Below are positions 13,038-44,042 of a stretch of 64,000 bases of DNA, in pieces (position 1 is the first letter of the stretch; every line of letters begins with the position of its first letter). Location: assembly GCF_046105845.1 (NCBI RefSeq), contig NZ_CP151004.1, one strand, 5' to 3'. A program made the translations under genes and the position numbers. Source of the DNA: Escherichia coli. Lineage in GTDB: Bacteria > Pseudomonadota > Gammaproteobacteria > Enterobacterales > Enterobacteriaceae. Under the pieces are notes generated by a model. It ran no database searches, was not told the DNA's origin, and worked only from the letters and a program-made list of their open reading frames with translations.

Positions 13038-14804
13038 ATGAACACCACACTAACACCCGCAGATCTCGATCCCCGTCGGCAGGCCATGCTGCTGTACTTT
13101 CAGGGATACCGCGTAGCCCGCATTGCTGAAATGCTGGGCGAGAAAGTTGCAACCGTTCACAGCTGGAAAAAACGCGACAAGTGGAGTGACTATGGGCCGC
13201 TGGATCAGATGCAGCTCACCACCGCCGCACGCTACTGCCAGCTCATTATGAAGGAGCACAAAGAAGGGAAAGATTTCAAAGAGATTGACCTGCTGGCGCG
13301 CCAGTCGGAGCGCCATGCGCGGATCGGCAAGTTTAACAATGGCGGCAACGAAGCCGACTTAAACCCTAACGTTGCCAACCGCAACAAAGGCCCGCGCCGT
13401 CAGCCGGAAAAGAACGTTTTCACCGATGAACAGATTGAGAAGCTGGAAGAAATCTTCCATTCCTCCATGTTCAACTACCAGCGCCACTGGTGGGAAGCCG
13501 GAAAAACCAACCGCATCCGCAACCTGCTGAAGTCACGCCAGATCGGCGCGACCTTCTATTTTGCCCGTGAAGCCCTGATTGACGCCCTGCTAACCGGGCG
13601 TAACCAGATTTTCCTTTCCGCCAGCAAGGCACAGGCCCACGTCTTTAAGCAGTACATCATCGACTTCGCCAAAGAAGTGGAGGTGGAGCTGAAAGGCGAT
13701 CCGATGGTGCTTCCTAACGGGGCCACGCTGTACTTCCTCGGCACCAATGCCCGCACGGCCCAGAGTTACCACGGCAACCTGTATCTGGATGAATATTTCT
13801 GGATACCGAAATTCCAGGAGCTGCGCAAAGTGGCTTCCGGTATGGCTATTCACAAGAAATGGCGACAGACCTATTTTTCCACGCCATCCAGTCTGACACA
13901 CAGTGCTTATCCGTTCTGGTCCGGTGCGCTGTTCAACCGTGGGCGCAACAGAGCCGATAAGGTGGACATCGACCTGTCCCACAGCAATCTGGCCCCCGGC
14001 CTGCTGTGCGCAGACGGGCAATACCGCCAGATAGTCACCGTGGAAGATGCGGTGCGCGGCGGCTGTAACCTGTTCGACCTTGACCAGTTGCGCATGGAGT
14101 ACAGCCCTGACGAATACCAGAACTTGCTGATGTGCGAGTTCGTGGACGATCTCGCGTCCGTGTTCCCGCTCAGCGAATTGCAGGCGTGCATGGTGGACAG
14201 CTGGGAAGTCTGGACCGACTTTCATGCACTGGCCCTGCGCCCGTTTGGCTGGCGCGAAGTGTGGATCGGTTATGACCCGGCAAAAGGTACGCAGAACGGC
14301 GACAGCGCCGGATGCGTGGTGGTGGCACCGCCAGCCGTGCCAGGCGGTAAGTTCCGCATTCTTGAGCGTCACCAGTGGCGCGGAATGGACTTTCGCGCCC
14401 AGGCTGACGCCATCAAAAAACTGACCGAACAGTACAACGTGACCTATATCGGCATCGACTCAACCGGCGTTGGTCACGGGGTTTACGAGAACGTGAAAGC
14501 GTTTTTTCCTGCCGTCCGGGAGTTTGTCTACAACCCCAACGTTAAAAACGCCCTGGTACTCAAGGCCTACGACATTATCAGCCACCGCCGTCTTGAGTTT
14601 GACGCCGGGCACACCGACATTGCGCAGTCATTCATGGCAATCCGTCGCGCCACCACCGCCAGCGGCAACCGCCCGACCTATGAAGCCAGCCGCAGCGAAG
14701 AAGCCAGCCATGCCGATCTGGCCTGGGCAACAATGCACGCACTGTTTAACGAACCACTGCAGGGCGAGTCCGCCAATACCAGCAATATTGTGGAGATTTT
14801 TTGA
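13038..14804 (+). CDS. P: Terminase large (ATPase) subunit (P2 gpP-like)
   Basis: 588-aa ORF MNTTLTPADLDPRRQAMLLYFQGYRVARIAEMLGEK... Confidence 0.9.
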   Translation: MNTTLTPADLDPRRQAMLLYFQGYRVARIAEMLGEKVATVHSWKKRDKWSDYGPLDQMQLTTAARYCQLIMKEHKEGKDFKEIDLLARQSERHARIGKFNNGGNEADLNPNVANRNKGPRRQPEKNVFTDEQIEKLEEIFHSSMFNYQRHWWEAGKTNRIRNLLKSRQIGATFYFAREALIDALLTGRNQIFLSASKAQAHVFKQYIIDFAKEVEVELKGDPMVLPNGATLYFLGTNARTAQSYHGNLYLDEYFWIPKFQELRKVASGMAIHKKWRQTYFSTPSSLTHSAYPFWSGALFNRGRNRADKVDIDLSHSNLAPGLLCADGQYRQIVTVEDAVRGGCNLFDLDQLRMEYSPDEYQNLLMCEFVDDLASVFPLSELQACMVDSWEVWTDFHALALRPFGWREVWIGYDPAKGTQNGDSAGCVVVAPPAVPGGKFRILERHQWRGMDFRAQADAIKKLTEQYNVTYIGIDSTGVGHGVYENVKAFFPAVREFVYNPNVKNALVLKAYDIISHRRLEFDAGHTDIAQSFMAIRRATTASGNRPTYEASRSEEASHADLAWATMHALFNEPLQGESANTSNIVEIF

Positions 14805-15832
14805 TGGGAAAGAGTAAGAAGAACCGCGCTGCGGCGACGAAACAGATCCAGCATAAAAACCAGACTTCAGCCGAAGCATTCAGCTTCGGTGATCCCGTTC
14901 CTGTTCTGGACCGCCGCGAACTGCTGGACTATGTGGAATGCGTACAGATGGACCGTTGGTATGAGCCACCAGTGAGTTTCGACGGCCTGGCGCGAACCTT
15001 CCGCGCCGCCGTACACCACAGCTCACCGATTGCAGTAAAGTGCAACATTCTGACCAGCACCTATATCCCTCACCCGTTGCTCAGCCAGCAGGCTTTTTCA
15101 CGTTTTGTGCAGGACTATCTGGTATTTGGTAATGCCTACCTGGAGAAACGCACGAACCGCTTCGGTGAAGTTATCGCCCTTGAACCTGCCCTGGCAAAAT
15201 ACACTCGACGCGGATTAGACCTGGATACCTACTGGTTTGTGCAATACGGTATGGCAACCCAGCCGTATCAGTTCACGAAAGGCAGCATCTTTCATCTGAT
15301 GGAACCGGATATTAATCAGGAGATCTACGGCCTGCCTGGCTATCTTTCTGCTATTCCATCCGCTCTGCTCAACGAGTCCGCCACGCTGTTCCGCCGGAAG
15401 TATTACATTAACGGCAGTCATGCAGGCTTCATCATGTACATGACCGATGCCGCGCAAAACCAGGAAGATGTGAACAACCTCCGCAACGCGATGAAAAGCG
15501 CCAAAGGTCCGGGCAATTTCCGCAACCTGTTTATGTACTCGCCTAACGGCAAAAAAGATGGCATTCAGATTATCCCGTTATCGGAAGTCGCGGCGAAGGA
15601 TGAGTTTTTGAATATCAAGAACGTGAGCCGGGACGACATGATGGCAGCACACCGTGTGCCGCCACAAATGATGGGGATTATGCCTAATAATGTTGGGGGA
15701 TTTGGGGATGTGGAGAAGGCGAGCTTGGTCTTTGTTCGTAATGAACTGATTCCTTTACAAAAAAGACTGATGGAAGTAAATGTCTGGCTCAATGAAGAAG
15801 TGATTGTATTCAATAGATACATTTTAGAGTAA
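14804..15832 (+). CDS. Q: Portal protein (P2 gpQ-like)
   Basis: 343-aa ORF; ATG at 14804 overlaps the P stop (TGATG); ORF track start 14801 is a TTG. Confidence 0.9.
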   Translation: MGKSKKNRAAATKQIQHKNQTSAEAFSFGDPVPVLDRRELLDYVECVQMDRWYEPPVSFDGLARTFRAAVHHSSPIAVKCNILTSTYIPHPLLSQQAFSRFVQDYLVFGNAYLEKRTNRFGEVIALEPALAKYTRRGLDLDTYWFVQYGMATQPYQFTKGSIFHLMEPDINQEIYGLPGYLSAIPSALLNESATLFRRKYYINGSHAGFIMYMTDAAQNQEDVNNLRNAMKSAKGPGNFRNLFMYSPNGKKDGIQIIPLSEVAAKDEFLNIKNVSRDDMMAAHRVPPQMMGIMPNNVGGFGDVEKASLVFVRNELIPLQKRLMEVNVWLNEEVIVFNRYILE

Positions 15833-15860
15833 AAAAATGGGCACCATGAGGTGCCCAAGT
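15831..15860. terminator. Hairpin terminator between the convergent portal and NTPase genes
   Basis: GGGCACC-atga-GGTGCCC stem-loop (15839-15856) flanked by an A7 run, which reads as a U-run for the minus-strand transcript. Confidence 0.5.
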
Positions 15861-15862
15861 TG

Positions 15863-17287
15863 TTACTTACGTGTTTCAACTATATTCAGCCCCTTATAAA
15901 GGCTTTGATGGATATATACAGAACCAGTATTTGGCAACATTAAATCAGCATCTTCACATCGGAATCTAGCCGTACCGGAATTGCCCAACCGGACACCAAT
16001 CACAGAAGCATTAAATAGAGTTTTCATCAATTCACGAGAAGTATAGCGCTTACAAAGGTCAGGCGCTTTCTCTTCAATCTTACTGATGAATTCTTCTGTA
16101 GAATTATATCTATGCTGCGTCTGACGTAAAGATTCCAATAGCTCACCAAAATGAGGGTAGAGCCTTTTGTATTCTTGTTTTAAGTCCTCAACTTTCCAAG
16201 CGCTGTACCGTTCTTCAGCTATTCTAATTATATCCTTTTTTATTTCAGAAGCATTAGCATCACAGCGTTTTTGGCATTCTTGCAAAAACTGAATAACTTC
16301 TCTTGGGCGCAAAAATGTGCGCTTCACCAAATAGTTAAACGGTGAAATACTCCCTCTCATTTCACCTTCCTCAAAAATATCATCTATAGTTATATTTTCC
16401 GGCAATCTGGCGTTCACCATATCTTTCAACAACTCTGGTGTCCAGATTATTTCTTCTTCAATTGCTCGGTGTTTATCTTTATCATCAAATTCCAGCCCTT
16501 GATAAATATCAGAGCGTAAAAATGTTACAATATGAATACCTTTGGCTCTAGTATCAGAATAACTATCATTAATATCTTTTGTTGCCTTCAACAAGCCAAT
16601 CAAAAGGCTTTTGGCATCATCCGATCCATCCCAAGAATCATCTAATCGATCAGTGGCAATTAGCACCCCAATATCTGTACAAATTTCTTTAAGCTCGTCA
16701 AGGATGATTTTTATTATTTGAGGTGTCAATGGTGCTTGCGAAGCATCCTTATTAAACCCCACAGCATATCCGAAAGCCTCAAAATTGAATGAACTTAATC
16801 CCGAGAGTAACTTCCTTGCAGTTCCCAAAGTAGTTGGCGATATACCACCATAGTTATCAGAAACAAATTTTTTAATTCTAGCAAGGGCCTCCCGAGGTCT
16901 TTTCTCTGAAAATTGCCTACCTGACCTAATAATTTCTGCCGCAGCCTCAACAGCTATTGCAAATTTCCAAGCATTACAATGTGCCTGTTCGGGTAACAAC
17001 CCTTGCTCTTGATATTGTTTTAATGCTCCCCAAGCATACTGGTCTGGGGTCATGACATTTACGATAACGTCCTGCCCATATTTTGCTCTTACCAACCTTG
17101 GGAGTTGGGTAAAGATGGATGATTTCCCAGCCCCCTTTCTTCCAAGAAAATGGGCACTATAGAAACTCAGAGCTTGCTCAACTTGAGGAGTATTGATGAA
17201 ATAATCAGCCAACCTTCTATCAGCTTCAGCATCGACAGTACCAAAGTTGAGTCCCTTAACTGTAAGGCCTAACGCATCTAACCGCAC
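15863..17287 (-). CDS. P-loop NTPase, divergent KAP-like (candidate anti-phage or accessory gene)
   Basis: 474-aa ORF with GTG start and AAGGA RBS; Walker A FLGRKGAGKSSIF; Walker B-like VLIATDRLDDSW; visibly AT-rich compared with flanking late genes; lies between the cos-like site and Q. Confidence 0.75.
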   Translation of the reverse strand: MRLDALGLTVKGLNFGTVDAEADRRLADYFINTPQVEQALSFYSAHFLGRKGAGKSSIFTQLPRLVRAKYGQDVIVNVMTPDQYAWGALKQYQEQGLLPEQAHCNAWKFAIAVEAAAEIIRSGRQFSEKRPREALARIKKFVSDNYGGISPTTLGTARKLLSGLSSFNFEAFGYAVGFNKDASQAPLTPQIIKIILDELKEICTDIGVLIATDRLDDSWDGSDDAKSLLIGLLKATKDINDSYSDTRAKGIHIVTFLRSDIYQGLEFDDKDKHRAIEEEIIWTPELLKDMVNARLPENITIDDIFEEGEMRGSISPFNYLVKRTFLRPREVIQFLQECQKRCDANASEIKKDIIRIAEERYSAWKVEDLKQEYKRLYPHFGELLESLRQTQHRYNSTEEFISKIEEKAPDLCKRYTSRELMKTLFNASVIGVRLGNSGTARFRCEDADLMLPNTGSVYIHQSLYKGLNIVETRK

Positions 17288-17374
17288 GATAATTCCTTAA
17301 TTGGTAAACTAAATTTGAACTTGATGCCAACAAAGATAATATCAATTTAATTAAAAAGAAAGCTGTTGCGCGCG

Positions 17375-17393
17375 CTCGTATCCCCGCCACGCC
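17375..17393 (-). other. cos-like cohesive-end site (P2/186 type)
   Basis: Minus-strand reading GGCGTGGCGGGGATACGAG; first 13 nt match my recollection of the 186 cos (GGCGTGGCGGGGAAAGCAT); flanked by repeated TTTCATGCA motifs. Confidence 0.5.
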
Positions 17394-17772
17394 TGCCCGC
17401 TTTATGCAGTGGTTTTCATGCACATGCATGACATGAGCAAAAGCCCGCCAGTTCTGGCGGATCTGAGCAAAGACGATCCTCAATCGATCATGCGATTTCA
17501 TGCAGCATAGTCATGCACTGTCAAAGAAGTAAAAATCCGTATCTGAATGGCCACTTGAAAAACGGATCATACGGGTTTACAAAGATGAATGTTCGCTGTG
17601 AACGGGAAGCGGAAGTTAACTTTCAGATAACATAATCCATATGCACGAGAACCTCTAAAATAGAATGGGACACCTAAGCGGGGTACTTACAACGATTCTT
17701 TCCATATTCACAGTTAACACTCTGTTTGGCGTATTTTTATTCAAATAGCAAACACCAATAAAAGGAGTTTCC

Positions 17773-18108
17773 ATGAACAATATTCCCCCTATACCACAGT
17801 TAGGAATTTATGTCTCAAAAATCGATCCCACCCTACGTATCACTGTAACCGATGTTGATATTGTTGATGGTGAGGATGATTCTCCTGATGATGAATTGTT
17901 TTATTTAGTCCACTGGATCGAGGGGGAAGATGAAAGTGATATGACAGCAATGGGATTTGAGCTAGACCCAGTAGAGTGGCAGGCTTTCGTTGAATCTGAG
18001 CAATTAGTGTTTGAGCGTGATCCGTACATGGATTCAATCCCCGAAAATTCAAACTTGGCAAAGATTCGGGATTTTCTCATGAAGACTAAACAGAATGATC
18101 ATTCGTAA
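17773..18108 (+). CDS. Small highly acidic hypothetical protein
   Basis: 111-aa ORF with strong AAGGAG RBS; Asp/Glu-rich (VDIVDGEDDSPDDELF, IEGEDESDM). Confidence 0.6.
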   Translation: MNNIPPIPQLGIYVSKIDPTLRITVTDVDIVDGEDDSPDDELFYLVHWIEGEDESDMTAMGFELDPVEWQAFVESEQLVFERDPYMDSIPENSNLAKIRDFLMKTKQNDHS

Positions 18109-18300
18109 GTGTAAGCATCCATCAGGAAAATGGTTTTGTAAGTGAATCATCAACTTTTAGAGAGTCTCAGACACTCCCACTTCTGCTTCTGACACAAAGC
18201 GGACGATCACTTATCAAAATAACCGCCCACCTTACGCCTTATTTCACTCATTGCCCAAACTAGCCCCCATCAGAATGAATCCTCCTGGGGGCAACATTTC

Positions 18301-18885: not shown

Positions 18886-21300
18886 TTAATATAGGTTCCG
18901 CCACTTATCATCTTCCTTCAGACGCTGGTTCCGATAGAAGATACGCAGGCCTGCTCCTGACGGAATACTGCCGCCGCGAAGGAGCAAATCGACTTCTTTC
19001 TCGCTGCCATCAAATCCCCTGGACTTCAGTTCATAGACGAGCTGCTGTCGCTGATGGTCTGTAATTCGCTGTTTGTAGTCTTTACGCCGTTTCGGTTTCA
19101 CCTGGCGTAACCTTGCAGCCAGTTCCCGGCGCTCTTTTTTGCTCATACTGTGCAGGTAATCGTGCAACTCCTTGTCATTCATACGGGTAATATCCGTTCT
19201 GGAGTCCGCATCAGCTGATTTGTCTTTCCCTTGTTGGTTCAAATTTTCAGCAAGGGGACAGTTATTGCCACGAGTCCAAGGGGCGCAAGCGCCCTGGTCG
19301 GCTGCCGCCTCCTGAACGTCAACGACCTTACGAACCATTTTCCATTTCATTGCATGAGTGCAGATCTTGCCCTGTACAATGGGTGACCAGATGCCATAAA
19401 TACGAATACCGTGATCGCCATAAGCGGTCGGCTCTTCGTTAATTTCATAAGCTGTTCTGATAAGGTGATATTTGCGGGGAACCAGTACGCCGCCCTGCTT
19501 CATGATGTAGGTGGCAAAACAGCCAGCATCAGCGGCAGCCAGGATGGCATCAAGGCGCGGGTCATCCAGTACCGGCGCACCTGCTTTTTTGTCACCCTGT
19601 TGCCTTGCCGCCTGACCAGCCAGCAAGCGAAGTTCACGGTACGCCTGACGCCCCGGAATACCAAAGAAGCGGAACTGCTGAACACGATGCAGAGACGCCC
19701 AGGCATTAACGTATTCGGCGTTATCACGCAGGGATTTACCCGTTTCCTTGCTGATCTCGCCAGCCAGACCACGTCCGTCAATGTTCTTACTGATGTATTT
19801 CGCGATGTAGCTTGTCGGCGTTCCTTTGCGCGGGTTTATCAGCTCAGACTTAAAGCGTGGACCCGTGTTATTGCCCAGTTCCTCGCGGTCTTCACGGATG
19901 GCAAACTTACGCAACAATGCAGTAATGGCGCGGCGGTCTTTTTTGCGCATGAAACACATGAGATGCCAGTGCACAGTACCGTCATGGTGCGGCTCAGCCA
20001 CCCGCACGCCATACCAGCGCAACCCGGCTTTGTGCATAGCCTTACGAAATGCAGCAAACATGCCGACCAGATAATCGCTGCTTTGTCTTACCGTCGCATT
20101 TGTCCAGGTTGGGTTTGGTCTGCCGTTATTGAGCGTAGAATGGAAACGTGACGGACAGGTAATGGTGTAGAAAACGGCGCAGTCACCACGCATTTCCGCG
20201 ATAAGCTCCAGACCTTTAACACAGGCCATCATCTCATTGCGGCGGTGCGCCGGGTTGCTGCTGCTGGCGTTTACCACGTCTTCCATATCCAGCGTGTCGC
20301 CGTCTTCGTTCACCAGTTCATGAGAACGGAAAAACTCCAGCGACTTGCGGCGCTGCTCACGTTTATGCGTCACTGCTTCATAGCTGACATAGGGAGATGC
20401 TTTTTTGCTGACCAGGCAGACAGCACGCAACTGCTCTTCCCGCCATTCGCAACGTATCTTCCACAATTTTCGATACCACCAGTCGGCGCAAAGCATACGT
20501 GCCAGCGAACCCGGTATGAGTTCATAGGGCACGGGTTTGCGGCGGTTTCTTTTCCGACGGAGTTTCTCAAACGCAGGCGGGATAACATCCAGACGCAGGG
20601 TTTCCGCTGCCACCTTTTCCCATGTCTTGCGGATTTCTTCTGGCTTAACGTCATCGGTGGCATACAAATCACCACAAGCGGCCTCAAGACACATGCTCAT
20701 ATGCGCTGCTACCAAGGTGGACAGGCGTTTTACCTGATCCTGACTCATTTCAGGCAGGATCAGCAGGCCCTCAAGCCCTTGATGGCTTGCCATAAAACGG
20801 AAAGAAGCGGATAGCTGACTGTCGCGTACATACTCCAGTCGCTCCAGACATGACTTAATCGTCTCACGCAAATAGCGGGAATAAGCCTTTGGCCTGCCCA
20901 GGCTGCTGAAGTATTCGATACGTTGCATCAGCGGCTTGCTGATGTGGGTGGGCTGGGCGCTGACGTCCGCCAGAATGACCATGTCCGGGTTAAAACGCTG
21001 CTGCTCATGCGCCAGCTTTGCCCGACTAATGAGATTATCCTGCTCCATTTCGCGCTGGACAGGATCACGGGATTCATTAAAGAAATAACGCTCCCAGACC
21101 TGCTCACTCAGTGCATCGCGGCGCAGCTGTTCCTGCTCGTTATCGGCAGCGTACAGAGTGATCATGTTTGAAAGTGCAGACTCCGGCGCAACTTCCGCCG
21201 GGTCCAGATAAGGGTTAATGGCCTTTTTCGGGCCGTTCCATGAAAATGCTGCAGCGGCCTCGTTAAAGCCGCTAGAGTTGCTCATATCATCATGACTCAT
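18886..21300 (-). CDS. A: Replication initiation endonuclease (P2 gpA-like, rolling circle)
   Basis: 804-aa ORF, characteristic size and position. Confidence 0.85.
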
Positions 21301-23955: not shown

Positions 23956-24080
23956 GATGCAACATTCCTCGTTTAATGTTGATTAATCAGGACGAATACG
24001 GATCGTTTGTATTTTGTGAACATCATAAACATACGATCGCATAATGAAATCGTCAAGACAAAAGTTCACTTGGAGTGACC
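23956..24080. promoter_or_regulatory. Lysis-lysogeny switch region (face-to-face pR/pL type, inferred)
   Basis: ~120-bp AT-rich interval between divergent apl and cI with short repeats (ATACGGATCG / ATACGATCGC). Confidence 0.45.
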
Positions 24081-24650
24081 ATGAATTTGGAGAAAGGCGG
24101 ACGAGGCGCTATAGAGCGCATGGTAGAAGCATATGGCTTCAAGACTCGACAGGCGTTGTGCGATCACTTAGGAATCTCTAAAAGTACTCTCGCCACACGC
24201 TATATGCGTGACTCATTCCCTGCTGAATGGGTAATCCAGTGCGCACTTGAAACGGGCGCCTCGCTTAACTGGCTCACGACCGGACATGGTTCAAAGCAAA
24301 CTTCAGGTAATACAAATACTATGGAAGTCGTTAAATATGTATTATCTGATGGAACCTTGCAGGAAGATGGTTTTTATATTTTCGATAAAGAATTTCTACC
24401 ATCTACGCTCAAAAATCCGTTTGTAATCACCGATAACAATTCCGTTTTTATTTGCGATAAAGAGTTTAACGATATTCGTGACGGCAAATGGGTAATAAGT
24501 ATTGATGCCGAAGTAACAATCCGCGATATCACTCGTTTACCTGGTGGAAGAATCTTAGTTGAAGGTGGAAATAGGGCTTTCGAATGTAAAAAAGAAGAAA
24601 TCGAAATTATTGGAAAAATTATAAGCATAACAGTTAAGTACTTTGAGTAA
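24081..24650 (+). CDS. cI: Immunity repressor CI (186 type)
   Basis: ATG at 24081 after a GGAG RBS; ...IERMVEAYGFKTRQALCDHLGISKSTLATRYMRD..CALETGASLNWLTTG...ITRLPGG...FECK... Confidence 0.85.
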   Translation: MNLEKGGRGAIERMVEAYGFKTRQALCDHLGISKSTLATRYMRDSFPAEWVIQCALETGASLNWLTTGHGSKQTSGNTNTMEVVKYVLSDGTLQEDGFYIFDKEFLPSTLKNPFVITDNNSVFICDKEFNDIRDGKWVISIDAEVTIRDITRLPGGRILVEGGNRAFECKKEEIEIIGKIISITVKYFE

Positions 24651-24700: not shown

Positions 24701-25624
24701 ATGTCAACTCAAAAATTAAAATTTAGCCATATCAAAAACGATCTGAAAGCAATAGTTATGCAGAATCGTGGAGGGCAAAAAGTTATTGAGCGTATACTCC
24801 TAGCCTATGGCTTCAAGTCACGACAGGCATTATGTAATCATCTAGGTATTTCCCAAAGTACTATGGCCAACAGATATGCACGTAATACCTTTCCTGCAGA
24901 TTGGGTTGTTATATGTTCCATAGAAACAGGAGCATCAATTGAATGGTTAGTTCTTGGTTCAGATACTGCTCCTTCATCAGAGCAATATTCTGAAAAACAT
25001 GCCGTTAATGGCCTTTGCAATGAAGTATACATTCCCACTATAAAGTTCGATAATGAAAAACTCATGAATTTTAACCGAGGGGGTAAGGCAACAATAGAAC
25101 GAATTGTCGAGGCTTACGGTTACAAAACGCGCCAAGCATTAGCTGATCACCTAGGTATTTCAAAAAGCACATTAGCCACACGATACATGCGTGACATTTT
25201 TCCTGCAGACTGGGTTTTGCAGTGTGCAATAGAAACGGGCCATTCTATTGAATGGATTTCATTTGGTACAGGAGAAATGAAAAACACAAAAAATAAAGAT
25301 ACTTTAACATTAGTGAAAAAAGTATTAATCAATGGCAAGTTAATAAATGATGGCTCATATTTATTTGACCCATGCTTTCTACCTTCCAATTTAAAAAATG
25401 CATTCGTAGTATCTACCGAAGACTCTGAATTAATATGTGAAATGGGTTTTAAAGATGTACATGATGGTAAGTGGCTAGTAAATATTGATGGAGAGAATTC
25501 ATTTAGAATGATAACTCGACTACCTAAAGGACGAGTTTATATTTCATCCCAAAATCACTCTTTTGAATGTTCGCTTACAGACATTGAGTTTATTGCAAAA
25601 GTTATTATAAGTTGTTTACATTAA
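24701..25624 (+). CDS. CI paralogue with tandem duplicated N-terminal HTH domains plus a CI-like C-terminal domain
   Basis: 307 aa; residues ~22-90 and ~125-190 each resemble the CI N-domain (the second carries ISKSTLATRYMRD, identical to CI); C-terminal FECSLTDIEF region parallels the CI C-domain. Confidence 0.8.
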   Translation: MSTQKLKFSHIKNDLKAIVMQNRGGQKVIERILLAYGFKSRQALCNHLGISQSTMANRYARNTFPADWVVICSIETGASIEWLVLGSDTAPSSEQYSEKHAVNGLCNEVYIPTIKFDNEKLMNFNRGGKATIERIVEAYGYKTRQALADHLGISKSTLATRYMRDIFPADWVLQCAIETGHSIEWISFGTGEMKNTKNKDTLTLVKKVLINGKLINDGSYLFDPCFLPSNLKNAFVVSTEDSELICEMGFKDVHDGKWLVNIDGENSFRMITRLPKGRVYISSQNHSFECSLTDIEFIAKVIISCLH

Positions 25625-25649: not shown

Positions 25650-27167
25650 GTGAAATGTGGTGATTGTAATTGGAACTGGGATGAAGAAACTACCTTTATA
25701 TTAGACGACGAAGAGGAAATTCTTTCCAAAGACAAACTTAATCGGAGACACTATGCAGAATATCTATATTTTTATCTTAAGGAAAAGGGGCAAAAGAACA
25801 ACACGGTAATCAACCTTAATGCAGAATGGGGAGCTGGTAAAAGTTTTTTCATAAAGAGATTTTATAACTCAATAAAAGATGCACACCCATGCGTTTACAT
25901 TGATGCCTGGAAGCAAGACTTTTCTGATGATGCATTTTTAACCCTTTTTTCTTCTTTGTCACAACAATTGCAAACATATGCAGGAAAACTTGATGCTCGA
26001 TTGATACAAAGCGGCCATGCTATCGGACGCTTTACAAAAGGTGTTCTACCTGAAATCATATCTGGCCTAATCAAGACTTATGCAGGAGTAGATAACGTAG
26101 GTGATATAGCCAAAGAAGCCTCATTAATAATGCTGAAGGAACACCAGGAAAAACTGAAGAGCATTAAGGTATTAAAAAAAGAACTAACGTTATGGTCTAG
26201 GTTGGCATATGAAAATAGTTTTTCATGTCCTATATTTATCTTTATAGATGAATTAGACAGATGCAGGCCAGATTATGCAATTTCTCTTTTAGAGATTGTT
26301 AAACATATATTCGATATTAAAAATTTTGTCTTTATTATTGCTACTGACACAGATCAATTACAACATTCAATCAAGAATGTTTACGGTAATGATTTTTCCG
26401 CAAATGACTATTTAGGCCGTTTTTTTCATAGAAGATTTACTTTAAAACAACCTGAACTTAAAGATTTAATTAATGGTGTTATTGGTGATTATATTGGTAC
26501 CGATTTTGAAAATATCACATCAAAAACATACCCACTAACAGCAACATTAGAAGACTTTTCAATAAATATTTCCAACGTATTTGAAGCATTTGGGTTAAAT
26601 CTAAGAGACTCAATCCGAAATACTGAAAGGTTAATAGACATTCTTAAATCTGATTTAGTCAAAAAGAAAGTAGATTATATTTTTATAATTTCGCTAATGA
26701 TTATATATGATAAGGATCGTCAAATTATAGATGGACTAATTGGTCGAAGAAATGCAGCACAACGTTTCACTGATTCGATAAAGCAAAGCTCCAATTTAAA
26801 AGGTGTTTCTCAAGCCATCCTTGAATTAAATCTTGATACAAATCAGCAAAGAATAGGTGTCAATTATATCTATAGAACGGCGAGCAGTAGATTATTCATC
26901 TCACAGATCGAGCCCAAAATAAATTTAACATTAATAAATTACTTAGATGTTGCATTGTATTTTATTAATAATATAAACATGCTTAAATCAAGTATAAAAA
27001 ACAATGGGCAAAATTCACTAATGATTATATCTCAACAAGGCCCTATTGATGGTGATACAGCTATAAAGTATTTGCAAGGAGCCCTTATAGAGAATGGTCT
27101 GAATACATCTTTTTATGCCTTACATAATTACATTGAATTAATTGAACTGGCCACATCATTTGATTAA
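25650..27167 (+). CDS. KAP-family P-loop NTPase
   Basis: 505 aa, GTG start with GGAGA RBS; NLNAEWGAGKSFF (Walker A), IDAWKQDFSDDAFLTLF, IFIFIDELDRCRPDYAISLLEIVKHIF (Walker B), all hallmark KAP motifs; AT-rich. Confidence 0.85.
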   Translation: MKCGDCNWNWDEETTFILDDEEEILSKDKLNRRHYAEYLYFYLKEKGQKNNTVINLNAEWGAGKSFFIKRFYNSIKDAHPCVYIDAWKQDFSDDAFLTLFSSLSQQLQTYAGKLDARLIQSGHAIGRFTKGVLPEIISGLIKTYAGVDNVGDIAKEASLIMLKEHQEKLKSIKVLKKELTLWSRLAYENSFSCPIFIFIDELDRCRPDYAISLLEIVKHIFDIKNFVFIIATDTDQLQHSIKNVYGNDFSANDYLGRFFHRRFTLKQPELKDLINGVIGDYIGTDFENITSKTYPLTATLEDFSINISNVFEAFGLNLRDSIRNTERLIDILKSDLVKKKVDYIFIISLMIIYDKDRQIIDGLIGRRNAAQRFTDSIKQSSNLKGVSQAILELNLDTNQQRIGVNYIYRTASSRLFISQIEPKINLTLINYLDVALYFINNINMLKSSIKNNGQNSLMIISQQGPIDGDTAIKYLQGALIENGLNTSFYALHNYIELIELATSFD

Positions 27168-39547: not shown

Positions 39548-40107
39548 GCGTTAGTTTCTCCACAGACACAAAACGCCACGACGCCCGGAGCTGCACACTC
39601 GCGGGCGTCACTCTTTTCTGGAGCGCAAAAGATTTTGTAGACCAGTGCTGCATGCTCTTGGAGCTTCGAAATTGACAGATACAACTCATCATTAATTGCT
39701 GTCTGCTCGTGTGGCTCCACGACCCCATCTTCGATTGCCGAACGAATCTGCTTTGAGTAATTCCCGATCTGTTCGATGACTTCCAGCAGGCGCTGGTTTA
39801 TATCGGCGTTCTCTACTTCCTCAATTTCAGGAAGCGATACGAACACCCCACCAGCAGACTGTGCGACAGCATCCGCAATGTAGTGAGTGTCAGCCGCGCG
39901 CTGTAAAACCATTGCCCATCCCAGCGGGAAAATCTGATCGCCATCGGCACGAAGGCGGTTAAATAATGCGTTCTCTGTTACATCCAGCCAGTCAGCTGCT
40001 TCAGCGTAACCACCCGGCAACGCTGCGATAGTTTTTCTGACAGCTTTCACGTACCACTCAGGCTGTTTTTCTACTTTCCAGTGATACTTACCCACGGTTA
40101 GCCTCAT
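39544..40107 (-). CDS. Hypothetical early regulator (YdaT/CII-like position)
   Basis: 187-aa ORF immediately downstream of cro; family not confirmed. Confidence 0.45.
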   Translation of the reverse strand: MRLTVGKYHWKVEKQPEWYVKAVRKTIAALPGGYAEAADWLDVTENALFNRLRADGDQIFPLGWAMVLQRAADTHYIADAVAQSAGGVFVSLPEIEEVENADINQRLLEVIEQIGNYSKQIRSAIEDGVVEPHEQTAINDELYLSISKLQEHAALVYKIFCAPEKSDARECAAPGVVAFCVCGETNA

Positions 40108-40138
40108 CGTTCTGTGGTTAAAAATTGAAGGTGTTCTG

Positions 40139-40339
40139 TTAATCTTTCGGATAGATATCCGGTCTTAAGTCAGATTTCGTAATTGCACCTGACGTGCATT
40201 GCTCAAGTTTTTTCGCCAGCACAAAACTGGCTTTTTTATAACCATTGAAAACCAGCCGTAAGTAGCCAGGTGTTGAGCCAACTTTTCCGGCCAACTCGCC
40301 CTGCTGTTCTTTGGTTAAAGAGTCCCAATACGCTTTCAT
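40139..40339 (-). CDS. Cro-like HTH repressor (YdaS-type)
   Basis: From MKAYWDSLTKEQQGELAGKVGSTPGYLRLVFNGYKKASFVLAKKLEQ with GGAGG RBS; divergent from cI. Confidence 0.6.
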   Translation of the reverse strand: MKAYWDSLTKEQQGELAGKVGSTPGYLRLVFNGYKKASFVLAKKLEQCTSGAITKSDLRPDIYPKD

Positions 40340-40429
40340 ACAATATGTACCTCCAGTATACATATTACATGATTGAAATGAACCTTCAAGATACTTGTAC
40401 CTTATCGGTACAAAGGTTTTAATTTCGTT
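40340..40429. promoter_or_regulatory. cro-cI intergenic switch with palindromic operator-like sites
   Basis: Imperfect palindromes ATATGTAC-ctccag-TATACATAT and CTTGTACC-ttatc-GGTACAAAG sharing a TGTAC core. Confidence 0.5.
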
Positions 40430-41104
40430 ATGAAAACAATCCATGACATCCGGCGGTCTAACGCCAGAAAACTGAGAGATGGTGTTGGCGGAAATTCATC
40501 CTTTGCCACCATGATTGATCGCGAGCCAACCCAAACCAGCAGGTTTATGGGGGATGGCGCTACTAAAAATATCGGTGACAGCATGGCACGGCACATCGAA
40601 AAATGTTTCGACCTGCCTGTCGGATGGCTTGATCAAGAACACCAGACAACGAACATCACAAAAAAACCTGATGTTTCAATCACTAACAAACAAATAACGT
40701 TAGTCCCTGTCATATCATGGGTACAGGCCGGAGCATGGAAAGAAGTTGGCTATTCTGAGGTTGATTTGAGCACAGCAGAAACGTATCCCTGCCCTGTACC
40801 CTGTGGCGAAATGACTTATATCTTGCGGGTGATTGGTGATTCAATGATTGATGAGTACCGCCCTGGAGACATGATTTTTGTTGATCCCGAAGTCCCTGCC
40901 TGCCACGGTGACGACGTTATTGCATTGATGCACGATACAGGCGAAACCACCTTCAAGCGATTGATAGAAGATGGAACACAGCGTTATCTCAAAGCATTAA
41001 ACCCAAACTGGCCTGAGCCTTACATTAAGATTAACGGTAATTGCTCTATAATTGGTACAGTGATTTTCTCGGGAAAACCAAGAAGATACACAATAAAGGC
41101 CTAA
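40430..41104 (+). CDS. CI-type repressor (HTH plus S24 LexA-like peptidase domain)
   Basis: C-terminal ...VISWVQAGAWKEV...LRVIGDSMIDEYRPGDMIFVDPE...TFKRLIEDGTQRYLKALNPNWPEPY... closely parallels the lambda CI C-domain with Ser and Lys catalytic pair. Confidence 0.85.
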   Translation: MKTIHDIRRSNARKLRDGVGGNSSFATMIDREPTQTSRFMGDGATKNIGDSMARHIEKCFDLPVGWLDQEHQTTNITKKPDVSITNKQITLVPVISWVQAGAWKEVGYSEVDLSTAETYPCPVPCGEMTYILRVIGDSMIDEYRPGDMIFVDPEVPACHGDDVIALMHDTGETTFKRLIEDGTQRYLKALNPNWPEPYIKINGNCSIIGTVIFSGKPRRYTIKA

Positions 41105-41116
41105 TCAATATTTATG

Positions 41117-41140
41117 AACCTGCTTCGGCAGGTTTTTTTA
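41117..41140 (+). terminator. Rho-independent terminator after cI
   Basis: AACCTGC-ttcg-GCAGGTT followed by TTTTTT. Confidence 0.65.
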
Positions 41141-41589
41141 TACTTGACAATGTACCTATGAGATACATAATGTATCCAAAAGAAACATGAGGCAGGCAAG
41201 ATTCAAACAAAATTTGGTTGTAACACGGCGTATGGCACATGCGTCGTTAGCGGTCTGGGGACGTTAAAGGGGACAATCCACTCCTTGCTAGGGCAAACAA
41301 ACCAGGTAGCCGGAATGTGCAAGTCAATGATGATGCTGATAAGACGCCTAACCAGCGTGGCGATCCGGTTTGACGCCTGGGAAGAGACCAGGGTGCAACG
41401 ATGAGGGCATTTATGGAGCCGCGACAAAGTGTGGTGCCGTAACTGGCTAAGTGCTCTCAGCGTTGTGGTCATCCGCGAAATGGCGCGGCGGTAAGTATGG
41501 CTGGGTTACTCTTTCCCCGTTGAGGACACCGGATTGTCAGGTTGACCATACGCCTGAGTGACAACCCCACCACAACAGCCACTGCTTTG

Positions 41590-41635
41590 GCGGTACCAGT
41601 TTGTACACTTGCTTCCGGCTGGTACCGCTCTTTTT
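41590..41635 (+). terminator. Rho-independent terminator-like hairpin in the cI / early-left intergenic region
   Basis: GCGGTACCAG (41590-41599), 19-nt loop, CTGGTACCGC (41619-41628), then TCTTTTT. Confidence 0.5.
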
Positions 41636-41724
41636 ACAAAACAGAGAAGAGCATCACCGGACGACGGGCTCATAACCCAATCCATCCGGGCGGCTGCCAC
41701 CGCAGGTGTTCTTCTCTGTTTTGT
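41636..41724. repeat. Perfect 15-bp inverted repeat with 59-bp spacer
   Basis: ACAAAACAGAGAAGA (41636-41650) and TCTTCTCTGTTTTGT (41710-41724). Confidence 0.6.
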
Positions 41725-41772
41725 GGAGAAACCAACCGACCTTGCAGGGTCGATATGATGAGGAGCAGCAAA

Positions 41773-42135
41773 ATGGCTAGCGAACGCAGTACTGATGTGC
41801 AGGCATTTATCGGGGAGCTGGACGGCGGCGTATTTGAAACCAAAATCGGCGCAGTTCTCAGTGAAGTCGCTTCCGGTGTGATGAACACGAAAACCAAAGG
41901 TAAGGTCTCACTCAACCTGGAAATCGAACCATTTGATGAGAACCGTGTGAAAATCAAACACAAACTCTCATATGTTCGCCCGACTAACCGCGGGAAAATT
42001 TCCGAAGAAGACACCACCGAAACGCCGATGTATGTCAATCGCGGTGGTCGCCTGACTATTCTGCAGGAAGACCAGGGACAATTACTGACTCTTGCCGGTG
42101 AACCTGACGGAAAACTACGCGCAGCAGGTCATTAA
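41773..42135 (+). CDS. YfdP-like early protein (hypothetical)
   Basis: Start at 41773 after an AGGAG RBS, 120 aa; upstream part of ORF track 41542..42135 spans the terminator hairpin. Confidence 0.55.
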   Translation: MASERSTDVQAFIGELDGGVFETKIGAVLSEVASGVMNTKTKGKVSLNLEIEPFDENRVKIKHKLSYVRPTNRGKISEEDTTETPMYVNRGGRLTILQEDQGQLLTLAGEPDGKLRAAGH

Positions 42136-42200
42136 TATCGTTCTTAATTAACTGATTATTTATCTCATCACTGAATATCTTTATATAGTGAGGACTTATT

Positions 42201-43025
42201 ATGTCTCAGAACTTAGACGCAACCGCAATTAATCAAATCCATGCCCTTATTTCTGCTCAGGGTGTTAATGAAATTATCAGTAAGATTGGTGCCGATGCTG
42301 TGGTATTGCCTGAGAATTTCCGCATTCATGATCTGGAAAAATTTAATTTAAATCGCTTCCGTTTCCGTGGTGCGCTTTCCACTGCCAGCATCGATGACTT
42401 TACCCGTTATTCTAAAGATCTTGCAGATGAAGGCACCCGCTGCTTTATCGATGCTGATAATATGCGTGCCGTCAGTGTACTTAACCTGGGTACTATTGAT
42501 GAACCAGGTCACGCAGATAACACCGCCACTCTCAAACTGAAAAAGACAGCACCGTTCTCTGCCCTGTTGTCTGTTAACGGCGAGCGTAACTCCCAGAAGT
42601 CACTGGCAGAATGGATTGAAGACTGGGCCGACTACCTTGTGGGCTTTGATGCTAATGGTGACGCTATTCAGGCAACAAAAGCGGCTGCGGCAGTCCGTAA
42701 AATCACGATTGAAGCAAACCAGACCGCTGATTTTGAAGATAATGACTTCAGCGGCAAACGCTCCCTGATGGAATCTGTCGAAGCGAAGACCAAAGACATT
42801 ATGCCAGTGGCATTTGAAATTAAATGCGTTCCGTTTGAAGGTCTGAAAGAACGTCCGTTTAAATTACGCCTCAGCATTATCACTGGCGATCGTCCTGTAC
42901 TGGTTCTGCGCATTATTCAGCTGGAAGCGGTGCAGGAAGATATGGCTAACGAATTTCGTGATCTGCTTGTTGAGAAATTCAAAGACAGCAAAGTAGAAAC
43001 CTTTATTGGTACTTTCACCGCCTGA
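42201..43025 (+). CDS. YfdQ-like protein (DUF2303-type)
   Basis: 274-aa ORF; family assignment by recollection of CPS-53 synteny yfdP-Q-R-S-T. Confidence 0.6.
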
Positions 43026-43152
43026 TTTCATTACTGCAAATGCCCCTGCGGGGGCATTTATGGAAACGTAATTAACTCAATAATCACCGGATGGTGAGGG
43101 CTTCCTTTTACCCAAACTCAGCGCGGTGCAGCGCATATACGTGGAGAACAAA

Positions 43153-43689
43153 ATGTCATTTATTAAAACTTTTTCCGGGAAGCATTTTTATTATGACAAG
43201 ATAAATAAAGACGACATCGTGATTAACGATATCGCGGTTTCCCTTTCAAATATCTGCCGCTTTGCCGGTCATCTTTCTCACTTCTACAGTGTCGCCCAAC
43301 ATGCGGTGCTTTGCAGCCAGCTGGTGCCGCAGGAATTTGCTTTTGAAGCGTTAATGCATGATGCAACAGAAGCGTATTGCCAGGATATTCCCGCTCCACT
43401 GAAACGCCTTCTTCCTGACTATAAACGGATGGAAGAAAAAATTGACGCCGTAATCCGTGAGAAATACGGGTTACCCCCAGTTATGAGTACGCCCGTGAAA
43501 TATGCCGATCTTATCATGCTGGCAACCGAACGCCGCGATCTCGGGCTTGATGATGGCTCTTTCTGGCCTGTACTGGAAGGCATCCCGGCAACAGAGATGT
43601 TCAACGTGATTCCACTGGCACCTAGCCATGCCTACGGGATGTTTATGGAACGTTTTAACGAGTTATCGGAGTTACGCAAATGCGCATGA
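43153..43689 (+). CDS. HD-domain phosphohydrolase (YfdR-like)
   Basis: ATG at 43153 after a GGAGA RBS; HD-type metal-binding motifs ...SVAQHAVLCSQ...ALMHDATEAY. Confidence 0.75.
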   Translation: MSFIKTFSGKHFYYDKINKDDIVINDIAVSLSNICRFAGHLSHFYSVAQHAVLCSQLVPQEFAFEALMHDATEAYCQDIPAPLKRLLPDYKRMEEKIDAVIREKYGLPPVMSTPVKYADLIMLATERRDLGLDDGSFWPVLEGIPATEMFNVIPLAPSHAYGMFMERFNELSELRKCA

Positions 43690-44042
43690 ATGTTTTCGAA
43701 ATGGAAGGGTTTCTTCGCGGTAAATGTGTACCGCGAGATCTGAAAGTGAACGAAACAAATGCTGAGTACCTGGTACGTAAATTCGACGCGCTTGAAGCTA
43801 AATGTGCGGCACTGGAAAACAAAATAATACCAGTGTCAGCTGAACTGCCACCAGCAAATGAAAGTGTTCTGTTATTTGATGCTAACGGAGAAGGCTGGCT
43901 GATTGGCTGGCGTTCTCTCTGGTACACCTGGGGACAAAAAGAAACCGGAGAATGGCAGTGGACATTTCAGGTCGGGGACCTTGAAAACTTCAATATCACT
44001 CACTGGGCAGTAATGCCAAAAGCGCCGGAGGCTGGAGCATAA
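43680..44042 (+). CDS. YfdS-like hypothetical protein
   Basis: 120-aa ORF overlapping the previous stop; synteny. Confidence 0.55.
   Translation: MRMNVFEMEGFLRGKCVPRDLKVNETNAEYLVRKFDALEAKCAALENKIIPVSAELPPANESVLLFDANGEGWLIGWRSLWYTWGQKETGEWQWTFQVGDLENFNITHWAVMPKAPEAGA

Follow-up and report, generated by a model that had tools for sequence, protein, structure and literature searches.

A Fun(Z)/Sll1717-family ATPase gene, predicted to be anti-phage cargo, between cos and the portal gene of a P2-like Escherichia coli prophage

A one-gene cassette between Q and cos

We analysed a 64,000-nucleotide (nt) stretch of the Escherichia coli contig NZ_CP151004.1 (assembly GCF_046105845.1; hereafter, the window), which carries a 186-type P2-like prophage with genes for CI, CII, Fil, Dam, A and DinI/Tum, followed by cos and Q, P, O and N. 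The subject of this report is an open reading frame (ORF) at 15863–17287 on the minus strand of the window, situated between the portal gene Q (14801–15832, plus strand) and cos. It encodes a protein of 474 amino acids (aa) with a GTG start codon and a stop codon at 15863–15865. The ORF, its full-length match to NCBIfam NF047389 and its place in phrog_13260 identify it as a single gene for a P-loop ATPase of the Fun(Z)/Sll1717 family, and an anti-phage function, predicted from this family and from the location in a defence hotspot, is probably its best-supported role.

The gene differs in composition from its surroundings, with a GC content of 39.6% compared to 54.3% for P and Q taken together and 53% for A (flanking phage genes, ~54%). 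This agrees with a preliminary description of the locus, which had reported an AT-rich gene of this length between a cos-like site and Q. The ORF is not a chance one, since hundreds of full-length homologues were found with E-values down to 1e-290, and the GTG start is supported by homologues that align from their own residue 1 (MRL..G.T; consensus MRL..G.T..D.DLG.VDAEAD). A Shine–Dalgarno sequence (AAGGA, 17294–17298, minus strand) is located 6 nt 5' of the GTG. At the other end, a GC-rich terminator hairpin with an 8-bp stem (15838–15857, both strands) begins 6 nt past the Q stop codon and has a tail of seven T residues (T7) on the minus strand, and because of this placement the ATPase gene and Q converge on a single bidirectional intrinsic terminator. 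The ribosome-binding site, GTG start, terminator hairpin and convergence on Q that had been described earlier were thus all borne out. A candidate extended -10 element (TGaTATTAT, 17336–17344, minus strand) was found by eye and with a regular expression and had been missed by the two-hexamer promoter scan. A search for inverted repeats flanking the gene returned the terminator hairpin only.

We located cos by comparison with related phages. The reverse complement of 17375–17393 (cos on the minus strand), GGCGTGGCGGGGATACGAG, is identical to a 19-mer in the annotated cos of phage Cartapus and matches P2 cosL at 14 of 19 positions, and the cos-like site had therefore been called correctly. The preliminary description was also right that P2 has no gene of such size here: its cos–Q interval is a 186-bp spacer bearing the terminator tQ only.

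Homology to Cartapus, vB_EcoM-813R9 and Klebsiella Kapieceevirus ends at 15766–15805, in the last codons of Q, and restarts at 17365–17368. As homology to relatives breaks at both ends, 15806–17364 (assigned to neither strand; GC content 38.7%; without homology to most related phages) is an exchangeable one-gene cassette with its own translation and termination signals. The left junction lies within the final ~30–65 nt of Q and the right junction 8–10 bp beyond the cos 19-mer. Homology of Q to the portal genes of relatives stops 30–65 nt before the Q stop codon (15766–15832), so that exchange of the cassette also swaps the C-terminal residues of the portal protein.

In P2-like phages, the interval between gpA and gpQ is a defence hotspot close to cos, as described by Rousset et al. 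2022 (PMC9122126) and confirmed by a 2026 preprint. Its other border is the replication endonuclease gene A, and the order in the window is Q (14801–15832), the ATPase gene, cos (17375–17393) and A (18886–21300, minus strand). The ATPase gene thus lies between A and Q, adjoining cos, as one of many alternative cassettes. Comparison across relatives, which had been proposed as a check, revealed a variable slot whose other occupants are of defence type: a Hypoth_Ymh protein matching PD-Lambda-3_B and HEPN models, a 580-aa AbiU-like protein, and a DUF4145 protein matching PD-T7-4. The earlier suggestion of anti-phage-like cargo at a variable cos-proximal position stands insofar as the cargo is a single, horizontally acquired gene; being inside the published gpA–gpQ hotspot, however, the cos–Q interval is not a new cargo locus. 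The arrangement differs in one respect from that of P2, where the cargo genes old and tin are on the A side of cos, whereas the slot described here is a separate one on the Q side. This Q-side slot is also found in many 186-like phages, and its junction extends into the 3' end of Q.

A second variable segment was observed on the A side of cos at 17520–18290. It contains an ORF (17773–18108, plus strand) for a strongly acidic 111-aa protein, annotated in RefSeq as hypothetical (WP_001059831), with no NCBIfam or PADLOC match. Rousset et al. list WP_001059831 in many arrangements of the P2-like hotspot in E. coli; WP_087601614 is not among the rows listed in their tables.

Membership in the Fun(Z)/Sll1717 family

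Family assignment of the 474-aa protein was based on profile searches. The protein scored 284 bits against NCBIfam NF047389 ("P-loop ATPase, Sll1717 family"; cutoff 75) in a full-length alignment, with residues 15–467 on profile positions 1–454 of 454. Among PHROGs it fell into phrog_13260 (E 4e-38, full length). Neighbours in the AlphaFold database found by Foldseek were named "FunZ protein" (TM-score ~0.8), and for this reason P2 Fun(Z) was tested directly. P2 Fun(Z) (NC_001895, 15675–17261) matched NF047389 over its full length with 209 bits and phrog_13260 with 706 bits, and hhalign of the family profile against it gave a probability of 92% (E 5e-7, 346 columns). Judged by these profiles, the 474-aa protein belongs to the Fun(Z) family as a distant homologue of P2 Fun(Z). 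Every superfamily-invariant column of the family motifs (N-terminal DAE, Walker A, DxxD, LRxD, the DK.K loop and RPR) is present in it. The remote-homology check proposed in the preliminary description thus upheld a P-loop NTPase and placed it in NF047389/Sll1717 and PHROG 13260, not in the KAP family. Likewise, the defence-cargo analogy drawn there with old, tin and fun holds, but the gene is more than analogous, as it shares NF047389 and phrog_13260 with P2 Fun(Z). RefSeq already names the Sll1717 family, and the kind of gene is known: an abortive-infection (Abi) ATPase of the Fun(Z) family in the P2 cos-proximal hotspot.

Other resources were less informative. Pfam assigned no domain to the protein, the sole match at E ≤ 10 being a spurious one to MAD, and a sequence-profile search of PDB returned matches at the P-loop level only (E > 0.4). 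The suggested PADLOC check yielded no real defence-system match, only PDC-M28C at E 0.025, which we took as noise. P2 Fun(Z) itself gave the same weak PDC-M28C match and no other, so PADLOC has no Fun(Z) model; the blank is therefore uninformative rather than negative, and it explains the empty defence annotation of the gene. Neither the protein nor its P-loop strings were present in the DefensePredictor supplements. Literature searches found no paper on "Sll1717" and, for FunZ and phage, nothing about mechanism.

We compared the protein to P2 Fun(Z) (NP_046777, 528 aa), the product of a lysogenic-conversion/Abi gene. The two are collinear over ~350–450 residues and have in common the motifs G..DAE (N-terminal), GxKGxGK[ST], hhhhDxhD, [LI]RxDI[FY] and RPR[ED]. 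Both genes are AT-rich, single-gene morons of P2-like phages on the opposite strand. They differ in location, fun(Z) occupying its own locus in the tail-gene cluster, with G and FI on either side, and in their borders: inverted-repeat flanks have been reported for fun(Z) (Nilsson 2004, as cited in PMC8987985), in contrast to the cos–Q gene, which has none. H460 of the 474-aa protein is apparently not conserved in Fun(Z). Blocking of T5 and sensitivity to fluorodeoxyuridine (FUdR), both conferred by cloned fun(Z) according to a note in the P2 record, are phenotypes known for P2 Fun(Z) only. In the BASEL study (PMC8594841), Fun(Z) inhibited all Markadamsvirinae, Tevenvirinae and Vequintavirinae as well as a Felixounavirus.

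In the present prophage, fun(Z) is not found at the canonical G–FI locus; this edge of the window is taken up by a serine invertase and alternative tail-fibre segments. At 1065–2483, two small ORFs on the plus strand, beside a tail-fibre assembly gene, directly adjoin the minus-strand gene for a serine DNA invertase (Mpi/XisF-like, 203 aa). The arrangement, which occupies the fun(Z) locus of P2, resembles an invertible switch of host range in the tail fibre.

A further likeness was seen to DS-41 ("AAA2", WP_033812887.1), a single-gene system validated in DefensePredictor with, for example, ~3.6 log protection against Bas63 (PMC13092281). DS-41 is of similar size (~500 aa) and has the N-terminal motif, Walker A, a DKLDE Walker B and the lid motif SPRE in the same order, but it lacks the sensor-1-like Arg (WIAFVWD) and does not belong to the same family. 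The hhalign alignment to it is collinear and covers 120 columns only (E 8e-4), as for a very distant relative. We also considered whether the 474-aa protein is a DS-41 member and rejected this, as it scored 25.9 bits against NCBIfam NF053860 (DS41_1; cutoff 370; E 4.5e-6) over residues 188–371 only, in an alignment that is likewise collinear.

Predicted structure and conserved residues

The fold was modelled with AlphaFold2 from a 30-sequence alignment (pLDDT 85.5, pTM 0.84), and invariance of residues was assessed in an alignment of 35 superfamily members that included P2 Fun(Z). The N-terminal segment (residues 1–45; 17153–17287; this and the following features are on the minus strand) is acidic, with an isoelectric point (pI) of 4.5, and carries the family-wide motif G16..D19-A20-E21..L26..F30, also seen in P2 Fun(Z) and DS-41. 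It is followed in the model by a nucleotide-binding alpha/beta domain (residues 46–282; 16442–17152). The Walker A motif GRKGAGKSS occupies residues 49–57 (17120–17143 for residues 49–56, G49-R-K-G-A-G-K55-S56), of which G49, K51, G52, G54 and K55 are superfamily-invariant. VLIATDRLDD, described earlier as an atypical Walker B, is at residues 208–217, with SLLIGLLKATKDI directly after it; both motifs are present as claimed. In this Walker B region (V208-LIAT-D213-RL-D216-D217-SW219; 16631–16666), D213 and D216 are invariant, P2 Fun(Z) included. A sensor-1-like motif (F256-L-R258-S-D260-I-Y; 16502–16522) with invariant R258 and D260 comes after beta4 (strand 250–258 of the model), and a conserved charged loop (F267-DDKDKH-R274; 16466–16489) contains the invariant K272. 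W107 and W282 are superfamily-invariant as well.

The remainder of the model consists of a helical lid (residues 283–378; 16154–16441) and a basic (pI 8.7), winged-helix-like C-terminal domain (residues 379–474; 15866–16153) composed of helices and a beta-hairpin. The lid motif R323-TFL-R327-P328-R329-E330, in which P328 and R329 are invariant, is a candidate sensor-2 or adenine-contact element, with the counterparts YYRPRD in P2 Fun(Z) and SPRE in DS-41. H460 (YIHQSL) of the winged helix is conserved in at least 90% of superfamily sequences. R258 may be the counterpart of the sensor-1 Arg of the STAND motif hhhTTR, and YIHQ (H460) that of the STAND MHD motif.

Structural neighbours of the model were the archaeal ATPases SSO1545 and PAB2304 (scores of 13.2 and 12.0), Cdc6/ORC (11.5), TnsC (11.4), CED-4 (11.3), the NB-ARC resistosome (11.2), BrxC (10.6), Avs5 (9.8), RdrA (9.3 and 8.6) and Avs3 (9.1). 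Nucleotide-binding domain, helical domain and winged helix, which together make up the STAND core, were all found in the 474-aa protein, and the predicted fold is a bare AAA+/STAND-like (STAND/ORC-like) switch. This core takes up all 474 aa, and neither Pfam nor the model revealed an N-terminal effector or a C-terminal repeat-sensor domain. In this the protein differs from the STAND immunity NTPases (Avs/AVAST, CED-4/Apaf-1, plant NLR NB-ARC), being the switch module only. It differs from the archaeal ATPase_2 proteins (SSO1545, PAB2304) and the ORC/Cdc6–TnsC–MuB AAA+ ATPases in its low identity to them (10–13%), in having no sequence-level membership in the ATPase_2 or ORC-type groups, and in its phage-cargo context. 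A Foldseek search of the viral BFVD structures returned nothing at E ≤ 0.001, with every TM-score ≤ 0.30.

Distribution and genomic contexts of homologues

Of 5426 complete E. coli genomes, one (strain 100181) contains the cassette, within the same prophage. In this strain, a 149.8-kb replicon with a plasmid label (NZ_JBRERE010000002.1) carries the prophage in its entirety, with a serine acetyltransferase gene flanking the integrase gene; either the prophage is integrated in a large plasmid or the contig is mis-assigned. A tblastn search of 50,697 phage records with the 474-aa protein found nothing, and the same search with P2 Fun(Z) found P2 itself only. The preliminary description had named conservation in all relatives as grounds for abandoning a defence role; on these counts, the gene is absent from nearly all of them and is therefore not a core phage function. 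An orthologue with 92% identity occupies the same slot in 186-like prophages of K. pneumoniae.

Beyond P2-like phages the superfamily is broad. A profile search of 1.84 billion representatives yielded 4065 clusters at E ≤ 1e-3, 2020 at ≤ 1e-10 and 355 at ≤ 1e-30, which puts its size at ~4000 clusters counted at 50% identity. The protein's own clade includes proteins from metagenome-assembled genomes of Armatimonadota, Opitutales and Chromatiaceae (65–69% identity) and actinobacterial proteins (>50%). In distant members, the ATPase is joined to VWA domains, EAD7 adaptor domains or coiled coils and, as identified by eye, to a further P-loop domain or a caspase-like segment with His and Cys. Some clade members of ~600 aa (P0080, P0090, P0100, P0105, P0121, P0130) carry a conserved extension of ~115 aa with the motif ...LSALPMQDL.FL...P.P......F..CA.ALG... 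An N-terminal effector in these longer homologues was considered and rejected, as the extension follows the ATPase at its C-terminal end and matches nothing in Pfam.

We inspected the genomic contexts of homologues at ~11 loci, a sample that does not amount to a statistical test. One homologue belongs to the cargo that a Tn7-like element carries, where it neighbours SIR2_2 and HEPN_AbiU2 and is separated from TniB and TniQ; another is in an island with RVT_1, DUF4379 and SNIPE/T5orf172; others are beside integrase genes or DUF4062. In Thiohalobacter thiocyanaticus (AP018052, 6942–13697), a small island between the flagellar genes fliK and fliL splits the flagellar operon. The genes of this island encode DUF6338, the Sll1717-family ATPase, a 606-aa AAA_15/AAA_21 ATPase, a DEAD helicase and a 225-aa protein without assignment. 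Solo homologues among housekeeping genes were seen in Aeromonas, Comamonas, Methylocystis and an actinobacterial metagenome contig. No partner gene was conserved beside the homologues in these contexts. Being single, mobile, patchily distributed and often next to defence genes, the homologues fit the picture of a defence gene that acts autonomously.

Predicted role

From its sequence relationships, we consider it fairly likely that the ATPase gene is a single-gene superinfection-exclusion or abortive-infection cassette, i.e., an anti-phage exclusion gene. In its product, the Walker A and Walker B motifs, the sensor-1-like Arg and the RPR of the lid are intact. In the lysogen, the ATPase would idle as a nucleotide-bound monomer in the off state. 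Infection by a heterologous lytic phage would switch it on via nucleotide exchange or hydrolysis together with oligomerisation, and the activated ATPase would then lead to abortion of the infection.

Several observations weigh against an exclusion function. The two-hexamer scan upstream of the gene found no strong or consensus promoter. Identity between the 474-aa protein and P2 Fun(Z) is 17%, and BLASTP between them is not significant (E 0.03), so that neither the phenotype nor the target range of Fun(Z) can be transferred to it. The experimental phenotypes come from P2 Fun(Z) and DS-41 rather than from the present clade. The 50–70% identity within the clade across phyla is atypically high for defence genes, and four of the ~11 contexts are solo ones among housekeeping genes with no defence neighbours. 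Finally, with no effector domain in the protein, the killing or blocking step is one that we purely infer.

As to what this step might be, our guess, offered with considerable doubt, is that the protein would assemble on DNA or replication intermediates in an ATP-dependent manner and so block DNA replication of the phage and possibly of the host. Such an output is favoured by analogy, because the protein has no effector, its nearest structural relatives assemble on DNA (ORC/Cdc6, TnsC, MuB, DnaA) and its winged helix is basic. The high identity across phyla suggests a highly conserved target or cue rather than a fast-evolving phage protein, and together with the FUdR phenotype of Fun(Z) it hints at a conserved cellular state or machine. 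A wider proposal is that Sll1717/Fun(Z) is a widespread effector-less immune ATPase, a minimal STAND/ORC-like switch with a mechanism undescribed for any defence system; this is a tentative idea. Such a switch might act by ATP-driven assembly on DNA or replisomes, or by sensing a conserved infection state such as nucleotide-pool collapse, at which the FUdR phenotype hints.

Alternative explanations

The alternative that survives best, and that we still regard as unlikely, is a moron with a role outside defence: a DNA-binding ATPase of the ORC/TnsC/MuB kind serving the element or the host (replication control, target selection or maintenance) from a permissive slot. Initiator and transposition ATPases (Cdc6/ORC, TnsC, MuB, DnaA) are among the top structural neighbours and one homologue is inside a Tn7-like element, but that homologue is grouped with SIR2 and HEPN genes in the cargo, away from TniB and TniQ, and no transposase or replication partner is conserved beside homologues. 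Several homologues stand solo among housekeeping genes, and identity of 50–70% across phyla is more typical of housekeeping-like constraint; against this, the gene is absent from nearly all phage relatives (the single E. coli genome and the empty tblastn search above), the other occupants of the slot are defence-type genes, and anti-phage phenotypes have been demonstrated for P2 Fun(Z) and, distantly, for DS-41.

Less probable still is that the ATPase is one component of a multi-part system, inactive alone and dependent on a partner elsewhere, such as the KAP NTPase at 25650 or a host factor. The protein has no effector domain, the EAD7 adaptor or VWA domains of distant members imply recruitment of partners, and the ATPase and KAP genes occur together as cargo in E. 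coli strain 100181. However, no KAP gene lies between the genes for integrase and CI in the K. pneumoniae prophages that carry the 92% orthologue, solo insertions of homologues come with no conserved neighbour, T5 is blocked by cloned P2 fun(Z) on its own, and the DS-41 system consists of one gene.

A passenger gene that is silent or in decay and has no function at present, to which the want of a consensus two-hexamer promoter and the extreme rarity of the gene in E. coli would point, is very improbable given an intact full-length frame (100% coverage against homologues), all superfamily-invariant catalytic residues, 92% protein identity to the Klebsiella orthologue compared to ~82% for the surrounding DNA, and the Shine–Dalgarno sequence, terminator and plausible extended -10 element.

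Equally hard to credit is a divergent KAP-family defence NTPase (the identity given in the preliminary description), which would act like the KAP NTPases of the QatA, RdrA or PifA type. The motif parallel on which it drew (DRLDD...SLL..LK and DELDRC...SLLEIVK) is visible, but it reflects the Walker B–helix–beta4 layout common to this class of ATPases. Pfam KAP_NTPase (PF07693) has no match to the 474-aa protein at E ≤ 10, and hhalign against the true KAP protein of the same prophage gave a probability of 0.4% over 15 columns, limited to the P-loop; we therefore rejected KAP identity at the family level. The folds of ATPase_2, ORC-Cdc6 and STAND are nearer to the protein than that of KAP, and its relatives match Pfam ORC-CDC6-like, AAA_16, nSTAND1 and ATPase_2, not KAP. 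In PADLOC, the KAP protein matches PDC-S20, PifA and QatA, and the 474-aa protein matches none of these. Many KAP proteins have a transmembrane or hydrophobic insert within the NTPase domain. No such insert is present in the 474-aa protein, which has no transmembrane-grade segment since its highest 19-residue Kyte–Doolittle mean is 1.19.

The true KAP gene (25650–27167, plus strand) encodes a 505-aa KAP-family NTPase by RefSeq annotation and lies between CI-like genes and the integrase gene, in the int-proximal hotspot. Its PADLOC match is strong to PDC-S20 (E 9e-78) and weak to PifA (1e-16) and QatA. It is a second, unrelated P-loop cargo gene of the prophage, having the P-loop alone in common with the 474-aa protein, which is thus not the second KAP-type NTPase it had been taken for. 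The matching RefSeq record labels both of two adjacent plus-strand ORFs, at 24075–24650 and 24701–25624, as "phage repressor protein CI". The 307-aa product of one of them has no NCBIfam match and noise-level PADLOC matches only, and may be cargo rather than an immunity repressor.

Relevance for defence annotation

For the present genome, a predicted exclusion gene at cos–Q is an ordinary result, i.e., another cassette in a known prophage defence hotspot. Its wider relevance comes from Fun(Z), which is among the oldest known phage-exclusion genes and among the broadest in the BASEL screen, and whose mechanism is a decades-old question. The anonymous "Sll1717 family" annotation is now linked to Fun(Z), a link not reflected in PADLOC, the sole defence library tested; since Fun(Z) is missing there, relatives such as the cos–Q gene go unflagged as defence. 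The family fold, as modelled, would be a bare STAND/ORC-like switch, and a compact, highly conserved clade moves among P2-like hotspots, Tn7-like cargo and defence islands. New, in a modest way, are the discrete slot on the Q side of cos with a junction reaching into Q, and the tie of the Sll1717 family to Fun(Z). The gene is a tractable candidate for work on mechanism and speaks for the inclusion of the family in tools for defence annotation. Should the effector-less immune switch prove true, the clade would be a good entry point to how Fun(Z) works.

Downstream of the P2-like prophage, the window contains a second prophage-like region at 40000–44000, which resembles CPS-53 and includes yfdP, yfdQ, yfdR and a LexA-family gene.

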